From an uncultured Candidatus Saccharibacteria bacterium (lineage in GTDB: Bacteria > Patescibacteriota > Minisyncoccia > Phycocordibacterales > WO2-35-19), in contig CAZVUY010000004.1 of the NCBI GenBank assembly GCA_964630525.1, forward strand, positions 11,448 through 75,447: 64,000 bases of DNA, written 5' to 3'. Below, in pieces: positions 62,304 through 63,988 of the stretch. How positions within the stretch are numbered: position 1 is the stretch's first letter; each line of letters opens with the position of its first letter. The position numbers and the translations under genes are program-made. Under the pieces are notes generated by a model. It made no database searches. It saw only the letters and a program-made list of their open reading frames with translations, and was not told the DNA's origin.

Positions 62304-62549
62304 AAAATGATTTTTCTATTAATATTTATAAAAAAGACACAAACACACAAAGACACCCCGATTCAGGGGGCCTACCAAAGCTCTCCTTTTTAACTTTTTA
62401 TTTTGCTATAAGCCAAGCCAGAGAATTTGCCTGTAATCCTCTATTGACCCTGTTAGATAGAAATCCTAGATTTCTTCTAAAATGTTATCAACATTTTGTT
62501 ATCTAACGGGGTTGACAACCACAACTCATCCGTCTCAATAGTAAGTACC

Positions 62550-62578
62550 AGTATATTCCCCCGATCAAATTCTGTCAA
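62550..62578 (-). promoter_or_regulatory. Sigma70-type promoter for the rpoBC operon
   Basis: Minus strand TTGACA-N17-TATACT, about 240 nt upstream of rpoB. Confidence 0.7.
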
Positions 62579-62604
62579 GTTTTGCAATCTTGACTGTGGA
62601 TAAG

Positions 62605-62632
62605 AAAAAAGCCCAAACCGCAAGGTTTGGGC
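62605..62632 (-). terminator. Intrinsic terminator closing the DGQHR-array transcript
   Basis: Minus strand gcccaaacc-ttgc-ggtttgggc-tttttt. Confidence 0.85.
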
Positions 62633-62636
62633 GATG

Positions 62637-62874
62637 ATGGACCAGTTGTCGGGAAGGCCCAAAAGAGCCAATGTATATGTAGGTCCATAATTAATGAGAA
62701 CAGACTATTACGAGGCTTTCACCAGATCTTCCAAAGTTCTCATCAATACCTTAAAGGATAAATTTAAGGGAGCACCAACCGGTCTTTAGGGTTAACCAAA
62801 GTTGACATAGGTGCTCCCTGGGTAGCTAGGACACTCGGGTCAAAGGTTTGTTAACCAGTCGATAGATGGTCCTA
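62637..62874 (-). ncRNA. TIGR-like dual-spacer stem-loop array (4 units)
   Basis: Units at 62827-62874, 62767-62819, 62690-62747, 62637-62688; each is stem-[C/A]C[T/C]-N10-TGG-loop-CCT-N10-TG[G/T]-stem; all 8 spacers exactly 10 nt and all different. Confidence 0.82.
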
Positions 62875-62875
62875 A

Positions 62876-63988
62876 CTAGAGCTTGTGCTTCGACTTCTGA
62901 AAGATCAGAGAGTCAAGTTGCCGAGCGATTTCGGCTGGGCTCGGAAAGATCGCATCTGGTCCACGGAATCTTTTGAAATCCCAAGCGTAGCGTTCAGCGC
63001 AAGATAGCAGACCTTTCACTCGATTTTCTTGCGGCCTAGACAGACCTCCCTGCTTCAGCCACAAAGCCAGAGATTTTTTGAATTGCTGGCCAACGACTGG
63101 TAGCAGGATGAGCGACTTCACCCCCTCTGTTCGCCGCAGAAAGTAGTTTTGGGGATCACTCCATTCCTTTGGCCAAATTTCTTTGGCTGCAGAGATGATT
63201 CGGAAGACAACTTCTTGTTGAACTTCCGCATCCTGTTTTAGGATTACAGAGTGAGCCGAAGATACCACTTTCTTTAACTCACCAAAAATACTACCAACAT
63301 TTATGATGCCGAGAGTGTGTTCGCGGAGCATCACTGCTGGAGGTATAGAAGAGAGCAAGGGCGCAAGGCGCTTGGCGTCTTCTTCTGTCGGATGCTTTCG
63401 CGGAGGTCTTTCCTCAAGGCGGATAAGACCGAAAAGAGGAGAATTAGGGTCGTTAGCAAGCCGTTTCCCCAAGGCATACGCCCTCTCGCTGATGTTGTCA
63501 GGAAAGAGACCAGTCTTGTCTTGCAGTTGTAAGACCAATTGACCGTCAATCTTCAACCGCTTGGTTTGTTGCAAGAACATTCGCACTCTCTGTTCATAAG
63601 AGATGCCGAGAGTTGCGGTAACCTTCAGTTGCCACACGCTCCTCTCTTCTTCAGAGAGGAGGTGGAGCGCAGCAATCCTCTGTTGACCGTCGTCGACCGA
63701 GAGATAGCCGTCCCTATTCCCCATGAGCGTATTCGTGTCTTTATCAACGATCCACTCCCCTTCCAAATTGCCGAGAATTGGTTCGGCGAATGTGGCATGA
63801 GATTGCCTCATTGCGTCGCGGATCTTTACGACTTGCGGATAATGAAGCAATCGCTGAACACCTTTGTGATTCGGGTCTTCGTTAAACCTTTCCACGCGGG
63901 CGATTTCCAAAAGTGTCGAAGCCGATACTACAAACGTGTAGAGTTCCGACCCCGGTTGACCTTCGCGAATGAAGTGGAATTCTCGCAC
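62876..63988 (-). CDS. DGQHR-domain (DndB/ParB-Srx-like) protein; may extend beyond the window
   Basis: GVQRLL and LSVDDGQQRIAAL motifs; the frame stays open to the window edge upstream of GTG 63988. Confidence 0.8.
   Translation of the reverse strand: MREFHFIREGQPGSELYTFVVSASTLLEIARVERFNEDPNHKGVQRLLHYPQVVKIRDAMRQSHATFAEPILGNLEGEWIVDKDTNTLMGNRDGYLSVDDGQQRIAALHLLSEEERSVWQLKVTATLGISYEQRVRMFLQQTKRLKIDGQLVLQLQDKTGLFPDNISERAYALGKRLANDPNSPLFGLIRLEERPPRKHPTEEDAKRLAPLLSSIPPAVMLREHTLGIINVGSIFGELKKVVSSAHSVILKQDAEVQQEVVFRIISAAKEIWPKEWSDPQNYFLRRTEGVKSLILLPVVGQQFKKSLALWLKQGGLSRPQENRVKGLLSCAERYAWDFKRFRGPDAIFPSPAEIARQLDSLIFQKSKHKL

Follow-up and report, generated by a model that had tools for sequence, protein, structure and literature searches.

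Genes and stem-loop units of the locus

The window analysed here, a 64,000-nucleotide (nt) stretch of an uncultured Candidatus Saccharibacteria genome (G000:C4:11448-75447; 727,506 bases on 9 contigs, completeness estimate 100), ends within a group of minus-strand features that continues on the contig beyond the window edge. In the direction of transcription, these features are a promoter-like site, a tasR gene, eight stem-loop units, a terminator, a gene for a DGQHR-domain protein, four further units, and a second terminator. The DGQHR gene is embedded in the unit array, and we show below that the tasR gene, the twelve dual-spacer units, and the DGQHR gene make up one conserved cassette, which measures ~4.3 kb from tas to the terminator. 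We are highly confident that this is a stem-loop tandem interspaced guide RNA (TIGR)-TasR locus with a DGQHR gene set into it. Positions without a prefix are those of the window; the prefix L002 marks our numbering of the locus itself, which reaches past the window end.

The DGQHR gene occupies 62876..63988 on the minus strand and encodes 370 amino acids (aa) from a GTG start codon, with an AAGGAG sequence 8 nt 5' of the start that spans the window end. An initial annotation, made from the window sequence alone, had described a DGQQR-motif gene on the same strand as the adjoining hairpins and sharing their terminator, which is what we find (an open reading frame [ORF] at 62876-63988, four hairpins, and one terminator). 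It had also supposed, from a frame open to the window edge, that the protein might carry more N-terminal sequence. That extension did not materialize. On the genome contig, the frame is closed 19 codons beyond the edge, allowing a maximum of 389 aa from a TTG, and the start of the homologues coincides with the GTG in an 11-sequence alignment. The protein is therefore complete, and a hidden N-terminal domain is excluded. The suggested fusion to a Nop domain fared no better among the relatives: the 10 longer proteins within the best 150 of 527 profile matches carry only the DndB domain, none has a Nop or Tas domain, and one of the ten has added pentapeptide repeats.

The DDGQQR motif lies at residues 99-104, where 11 homologues show no variation at D99, G101, and Q102 and almost none at D100 and R104. 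The NCBIfam model TIGR03187 (“DGQHR domain”) matched with 65.5 bits (cut-off, 58.85), aligning residues 12-297 with profile positions 3-268 of 276. Pfam DndB (PF14072) reached 24.5 bits, under its gathering score of 29.1, the DpdB equivalog NF041060 reached 37.3 bits vs. a cut-off of 300, and a PADLOC DpdB match over the N-domain had an E of only 4.9e-11. We conclude from these profile scores that the ORF product is a DGQHR-domain protein, neither DndB nor DpdB proper.

A structural model of the protein (mean predicted local distance difference test [pLDDT] score of 82, predicted template modelling [pTM] score of 0.73) consists of an alpha/beta N-domain (residues ~1-146) followed by a helical C-terminal half. 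When the N-domain was compared with known structures using VIA-align, the best matches were all ParB/sulfiredoxin (Srx)-fold proteins: PadC (score of 7.9; root-mean-square deviation of 3.1 Å, 99 residues aligned), sulfiredoxin (6.4), KorB (6.4), free serine kinase (6.0), pNOB8 ParB (5.6), SspE (4.7), and BrxU (4.6). Noc was the top Foldseek match of the model. The predicted N-terminal domain has, by these comparisons, a ParB/Srx-like fold. Structure comparison of the C-terminal half gave no convincing match, and inspection of the sequence for the SspE nicking motif EHxxP found none, the sole EH pair not being conserved. We found no relatives of the protein in viral contigs and none by tblastn against 50,697 phage records.

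The initial annotation saw no Tas gene, which is correct for the window and incorrect for the genome, and its suggestion that a tas gene might lie just upstream was borne out. A 436-aa tas ORF (L002 2838-4145, corresponding to G000:C4:76337-77644, outside the window) stands upstream of the DGQHR gene on the same strand, 898 nt from the DGQHR start. A Pfam scan of this ORF gave no match. The sequence matched Protein Data Bank entry 9mty_A (TIGR-TasR) with a phmmer E of 5.7e-10, improving to 2.9e-25 with a 15-sequence family profile, and scored 90 bits against NCBIfam NF052498 (“TIGR-Tas system RNA-guided endonuclease”; positions 2-215 of 215, cut-off 100) and 19.8 bits against an IS110 transposase model. 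The AlphaFold model of the protein (mean pLDDT of 82.4) was ranked by Foldseek closest to 9mty_A/B TIGR-TasR (E 3e-10), then to the IS621 bridge-RNA recombinase, and then to TasH. Its N-terminus folds as beta-beta-beta-alpha-beta-alpha-beta-alpha in the model and is RuvC-like. The RuvC positions are largely acidic in 15 family members, namely D6, E76 (in T-E-L-G-G), and D104-E105 (in D-E-Q-K-R-Q-R), with E76 substituted in two of them, and the RuvC-like site may on this evidence still be intact. The earlier proposal of a possibly nuclease-free module is consequently not supported. The Tas locus is single in this genome.

The 240 nt 3' of the DGQHR stop codon consist of four consecutive hairpins and one terminator. 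A 291-nt stretch 3' of the gene has a predicted folding energy of -96.8 kcal/mol (z = -5.74), which 0 of 200 shuffled sequences equalled. Each of the four hairpins has an outer stem of 7-12 bp and a 33-38-nt loop bearing a small central hairpin, and each carries two 9-nt spacers. All are on the minus strand. The first, U11 (62823..62878, 10-bp stem), parses as C-NN-N9-UG-central-CUU-N9-U-G, and the DGQHR stop codon, UAG, forms the start of its 5' stem. U12 (62767..62819, 10-bp stem) and U13 (62690..62747, 12-bp stem) correspond to inverted repeats I11 and I8, respectively, and U14 (62637..62688) has a 7-bp stem that is extended by flanking pairs. The tas gene ends in a similar manner, with its stop codon within the stem of the first downstream unit.

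All 12 units of the locus, the four in the window and the eight upstream, fit one grammar with spacers of exactly 9 + 9 nt: a stem ending in C, 2 nt (the first of which is U in 11 of 12), 9 nt, (U/C)G, a central element of 7-12 nt, C plus 2 nt, 9 nt, (U/C), and a G that starts the 3' stem. The strict C-U-N/U-G form is present in 7 of the 12. The units parsed were the non-coding hairpins of the locus with an internal loop; hairpins within coding sequence were left out, as was a fully paired hairpin at L002 2522-2569. The latter (minus strand, outside the window, ~21 bp, followed by a T-rich run) lies midway in the group of units that separates tas from the DGQHR gene and lacks spacer loops; internal termination and processing are possible roles for it. 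A looser detector that combined the motif with a stem gave 14 raw matches (11 distinct units) in the 2.3-kb locus, all on the minus strand, and 109 raw matches across the remaining ~1.45 Mb with both strands counted. The stems, 7-12 bp long, each differ in sequence from the others, and sequence-repeat finders detected no direct or tandem repeats in the unit stretch. The regularity of the units is structural, not sequence-based.

Could the hairpins be an ordinary structured 3' untranslated region, an attenuator, or elements resembling repetitive extragenic palindromes? The lack of a sequence repeat would agree with this, as would the Rfam search, which assigned no family to the units and returned two sub-threshold matches only: suhB, which is the terminator hairpin, and CcsR1, which falls within coding sequence. 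Ordinary hairpins would not be expected to follow, in 12 of 12 units, a fixed 9 + 9 grammar in which the C-U-N and U-G positions are conserved, to give strict matches on the gene strand only with none in 34 control loci (described below), or to adjoin a bona fide tas gene. We regard this explanation as very improbable indeed. The evidence supports identification of the hairpins 3' of the DGQHR gene as dual-spacer guide units, that is, predicted stem-loop TIGR RNAs (tigRNAs), as had been proposed from the window alone.

A promoter-like site precedes tas (L002 4300-4273). The first terminator-like site past the DGQHR gene comes only after the fourth unit; this intrinsic terminator (62601..62632, minus strand; L002 580-559) combines a 9-bp G+C-rich stem at 62611-62632 with a T-run. 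There is no room for a promoter between the DGQHR gene and the four units, because U11 begins with the DGQHR stop codon, and the gene is probably co-transcribed with its four downstream units. The coupling of gene and units that had been surmised is in this sense physical and probably also transcriptional. Past the terminator lies a promoter-like site for rpoB (62550-62578; L002 526-498). Between this site and the rpoB start we noted a 13-nt inverted repeat (I5, 62447-62512; arms 40 nt apart and 92% complementary), which may form a hairpin in the rpoBC leader.

Conservation of the cassette in related loci

Searching 1.84 billion representative sequences with a DGQHR profile yielded 527 matches at E <= 0.001, of which 58 had E <= 1e-30; the family itself is small, with 11 cluster representatives found at 90% identity. 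We assembled 18 loci with a DGQHR relative, consisting of our own, five from species genomes, and twelve from metagenomes. Close homologues (46-53% identity) are found at six of these, namely our own locus, L003, L033, L034, L035, and L036. At L035 and L036, which contain units, the sequence stops 400-470 nt upstream of the DGQHR gene, and the presence of tas can be judged at the remaining four. In all four, a Tas hidden Markov model match lies upstream on the same strand as the DGQHR gene, and the order is tas, units, DGQHR gene, units. The Tas proteins of the four are 53-60% identical, with 60% between ours and L003. The initial annotation would have been undermined by close homologues occurring apart from arrays or Tas; what we found was tas and units at 4 of 4 testable loci.

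Units of the strict grammar number 7, 5, 23, 8, 4, and 5 in the six close loci, always on the gene strand, and we detected none in 12 loci with distant DGQHR homologues and none in 22 other Tas/IS110-like loci. The 9/9-nt parse applied to 5 of 5 units in L003, 23 of 26 in L033, 10 of 11 in L034, and 6 of 7 in L036, and the units that failed it fall within coding sequence by their coordinates. In one region of another genome (G073; L020, L030, and L031), there are many loose hairpin matches on both strands, none strict, and L030 has long ORFs overlapping on both strands. In L033, the stretch of array that follows tas and precedes the DGQHR gene also houses an ORF (L033:4066-4494) encoding a HicA toxin domain (Pfam E 2.2e-19).

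The genes flanking the cassette differ, with rpoB at our locus and a distinct downstream gene at L003 and at L033, and the L003 genome belongs to the same phylum as ours and to another class. Near-identical sequence was recovered independently from a 2018 groundwater run, on one 2103-nt contig with 3 differences. Three further pairs of DGQHR and Tas homologues have matching longest contigs (4644, 3775, and 33044 nt), which is circumstantial evidence of linkage. A profile search of the species-genome contigs with the Tas alignment returned the L003 contig only.

Where related loci have a unit at an equivalent position, its stem is kept and its 9-nt spacers differ. This is seen at L033:5794-5841, L034:2971-3025, and L036:473-520, a conserved-stem unit that sits just upstream of the DGQHR gene in L033, L034/L035, and L036, and again when L034:4380-4437 is compared with L036:1879-1936. 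Kept stems with differing spacers are behaviour that fits guide units, and the alignments suggest spacer turnover between conserved stems.

The same observation bears on a role for the DGQHR protein in serving the array, either as a maturation factor trimming stem-loop tigRNAs or in renewing spacers while stems are kept. Stems are common and spacers different between related loci (e.g., L034 vs. L036), and array expansion is called an enigma in the main text of Faure et al. 2025 (PMC12045711). Furthermore, Xu et al. 2026 (bioRxiv 10.64898/2026.09.09.750476) report that adding 2,215 nt of downstream flank sharpened tigRNA boundaries, which leaves room for a factor encoded in the flank. Set against these points, ParB/Srx-fold DGQHR proteins are known as DNA-linked nucleoside triphosphatases (NTPases), not RNases, in the account of PMC10164549; we saw no nuclease motif in our protein, EHxxP being absent and the only EH pair unconserved; and most stem-loop TIGR loci evidently do without the gene (1 of 401 vs. 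20 of 401 genomes with Tas-like matches in the class sample). An array-serving role seems to us quite improbable.

The conserved-stem unit just upstream of the gene could alternatively be read as a sign of regulation. The DGQHR protein would then be a DndB-like, nucleotide-modulated transcriptional regulator of the locus, setting tas and tigRNA levels through contacts with promoter or array DNA rather than acting at RNA-specified targets. Regulation of the dnd operon is the role described for DndB, the founding member of the family (PMC4507180; also PMC10164549), and the DGQHR gene, between two sub-arrays and right behind a terminator, occupies a plausible control point. Yet we found no operator-like repeated DNA site in the locus, the similarity to DndB proper is weak (its Pfam score lies under the cut-off), and a plain regulator needs no embedding among guide units at every locus. 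This explanation appears rather improbable.

Possible functions of the DGQHR protein

In the reading that we favour, a stem-loop TIGR-TasR system has the DGQHR protein as its conserved accessory NTPase with a ParB/Srx fold, a variant of the TasA-TasParB pairing described below, and we consider this fairly probable. That the gene is functionally tied to the TIGR-TasR system, by whatever route, is likely. How the protein would act is a more tentative matter, and this applies to the proposal of the initial annotation that a guide-loaded protein might bring the ParB-like protein to DNA for silencing or partitioning. The specific idea of an NTPase working at the RNA-specified target is one that we hold with considerable doubt.

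Several observations weigh against an accessory role. After the eighth unit comes a terminator-like hairpin (L002 2176-2146), placed between the tas sub-array and the DGQHR gene, so that the two genes may belong to separate operons. A search for promoters found no good match ahead of the DGQHR gene at our locus, and by eye a TTGACA-17-TAGATT sequence stands ahead of the gene at L003. The linkage itself rests on four testable, mutually related loci. In the genome samples, the DGQHR family occurs in 1 of 401 genomes of the class and 2 of 401 of the phylum (ours being included in each, and L003 being the second), and Tas/IS110-like matches occur in 20 of 401 genomes of the class sample. Because the other 19 of these genomes lack this DGQHR family, the gene is no general Tas partner and is confined to one TasR subclade.

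The spacers provide a further point of this kind. We scanned the 727-kb genome for targets, allowing both arrangements of each spacer pair and gaps of 0-2 nt, and found 0 sites at <= 1 mismatch. Sites with 2 mismatches numbered 4, vs. 5 for reversed-spacer controls, and the counts at 2-3 mismatches were control-like. Since no spacer pair matches the genome in which it is encoded, the targets are presumably foreign. In collections as large as those of viral or metagenome sequence, exact 18-nt matches would by our estimate arise by chance. In a bioreactor metatranscriptome (X13), two 151-nt contigs cover the tas 5' end and leader (L002:3875-4218) and none covers the DGQHR gene or the units, a faint hint of tas expression in a data set from which absence is not inferable and in which DNA carry-over is possible.

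The more distant DGQHR homologues (28-35% identity) also speak against a fixed association, having neither Tas nor strict units in 12 loci, 6 of which extend at least 4 kb on each side. At four of them, a conserved ~440-aa protein is encoded downstream of the DGQHR homologue (L006:7917-10367, L007:7974-10483, L041:2531-4959, and L043:5932-8394). In this partner, the motif N-L-D-I-C-G-S is invariant and the helical tail at the C-terminus is conserved; the protein matched no Pfam or NCBIfam model. We considered whether it might be Tas-like and discarded the idea, the hhalign probability being only 0.1. The distant DGQHR protein and its ~440-aa partner may form a separate two-gene system. Just before the DGQHR gene in L004, L041, and L043 is a pair of genes for ~89-aa and ~545-aa proteins, which we take to be groES-groEL.

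These relatives with a different partner lend some weight to a passenger origin of the DGQHR gene, in which an ancestral array would have acquired an independent gene of a defence system or mobile island that was then inherited. The arrays evidently tolerate insertions, as the HicA-like gene in the L033 array illustrates, and the supporting loci make up one protein clade, for which a single ancient insertion is possible. A passenger would not readily account for the retention of order, strand, and flanking units despite the divergence of both the DGQHR protein and Tas, nor for conservation that spans different genomic contexts and two classes, nor for a DGQHR stop codon built into the stem of the first unit. 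We judge a passenger origin to be a poor explanation, with little probability.

Returning to the DGQHR protein as an accessory NTPase of the TasR system, it would be a factor dedicated to its own TasR subclade. If it resembles DpdB, SspE, and ParB, it would dimerize and have NTPase activity, its ParB/Srx-fold N-domain supplying the nucleotide motif DGQQR and its helical C-domain facing the DNA, and it would act on DNA at or around the sites opened by the TasR-tigRNA complex. It might aid duplex opening or turnover, as the DpdB ATPase does for DpdA. Alternatively, it might be a clamp, loaded so as to extend what the bound complex does and to bring about silencing or the exclusion of mobile elements. 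A co-fold of Tas with the DGQHR protein scored 0.00, to which we attach no weight in either direction.

A more pointed form of the clamp proposal, which we think unlikely, is that NTP drives the DGQHR protein as a ParB-like clamp or motor, with TasR-tigRNA in place of a fixed parS-like sequence determining where it is loaded. The 9-nt spacer pair would open the duplex, and a DGQHR dimer would engage the opened DNA and spread along it or remodel it, so that an RNA-guided complex bound at a point would be turned, in a minimal-genome episymbiont, into a device that silences or excludes regionally. In a bolder variant, the protein would also renew spacers between conserved stems and would thereby provide a route of TIGR adaptation.

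Comparison with known systems

Our locus resembles the stem-loop TIGR-TasR systems found in candidate phyla radiation (CPR) bacteria in most respects. Stem-loop TIGR arrays without sequence repeats have been described by Faure et al. 2025 (PMC12045711), and for the CPR TasR clade Xu et al. 2026 (10.64898/2026.09.09.750476) report the box motifs CUU and UG, a loop between the spacers that can be a hairpin, and units that lie upstream as well as downstream of the genes. Likewise, our Tas protein combines a RuvC-like N-domain with a Nop-type domain; our units have variable palindromic stems, two ~9-nt spacers, C-U-U/U-G boxes, and a loop hairpin; and the units flank the genes on both sides in a host with a small genome. 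Our locus is unlike the published CPR TasR loci in two ways. It has a DGQHR gene among the units, and, whereas Xu et al. 2026 describe the CPR TasR RuvC sites as inactivated and the proteins as catalytically dead, the acidic residues D6, E76, and D104 appear from the alignment to be largely conserved in our Tas.

The closest published parallel to the gene arrangement is the parB-like gene tasParB, which Faure et al. 2025 report to be operonized with tasA and dual-repeat arrays. Shared by the two cases is a ParB-superfamily gene that appears operonized with tas, accompanied by upstream, downstream, and intervening arrays. They differ in that TasA has no nuclease domain and is accompanied by dual-repeat arrays, whereas our system is of the TasR type with stem-loop units and a DGQHR partner. 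The likeness between TasParB and the DGQHR protein is one of genomic logic only. TIGR-Tas was described only in 2025, and tasParB, with TasA and dual-repeat arrays, is the one accessory gene so far mentioned. Our locus and its relatives add a second partner from the ParB superfamily, one of the DGQHR/DpdB type that a CPR TasR subclade conserves within its stem-loop arrays, which suggests that the coupling of an RNA-guided DNA binder with a ParB-fold NTPase is a recurrent solution and not a one-off. The ~4.3-kb cassette offers a compact setting in which to consider the roles such an NTPase could have, among them target opening, spreading, turnover, guide maturation, and spacer renewal.

DpdB is presented in PMC10164549 as a ParB-fold ATPase with a DGQQR motif that belongs to the Dpd 7-deazaguanine DNA-modification system. 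DpdB and our protein share an N-terminal ParB fold with DGQQR followed by a helical C-terminal domain, and the structural neighbours of DpdB largely overlap with those of our model (PadC, pNOB8 ParB, Atu1540, and sulfiredoxin by VIA-align; Noc by Foldseek). DpdB is the NTPase partner of a DNA-acting enzyme, and the genomic partner of the DGQHR protein is the RNA-guided Tas. The two are not orthologues, as the NF041060 score far below its cut-off indicates. DndB shares with our protein the DGQHR-domain family and the ParB/Srx superfamily; it differs in that our protein falls below the Pfam DndB cut-off and is not encoded in a dnd operon. A search of the genome for DndC (TIGR03183) gave 0 matches, and no dnd-like genes were present among the ORFs flanking the locus or six neighbouring ORFs scanned with Pfam. 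The neighbours of the DGQHR gene are tas, rpoB, and unrelated genes.

DndB and DGQHR are not mentioned in the main text of Faure et al. 2025, to which the supplements may add; the reference list of that paper includes two works on dnd genes and ParB/Srx, whose citing passages were not located among the best 12 of 27 main-text matches. Similarly, the main text of Xu et al. 2026 mentions neither DndB, ParB, nor DGQHR, although its supplementary table may bear on them, and ParB and DndB are not mentioned in the main text of the 2026 PlTasA/SpTasH preprint. When we combined DGQHR or DndB with TIGR-array terms, no paper was found among the matches listed. TIGR-Tas, stem-loop arrays, the CPR TasR clade, and tasParB with tasA are thus already published, and our finding extends the idea already in print for tasParB while giving a concrete lead on the accessory functions of a young field. 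The locus marks a TasR subclade whose RuvC-like site may remain intact, and what appears to be new, judging from the sequences, is a DGQHR-type ParB-superfamily accessory gene within the stem-loop arrays of this subclade with its intact-looking RuvC residues.

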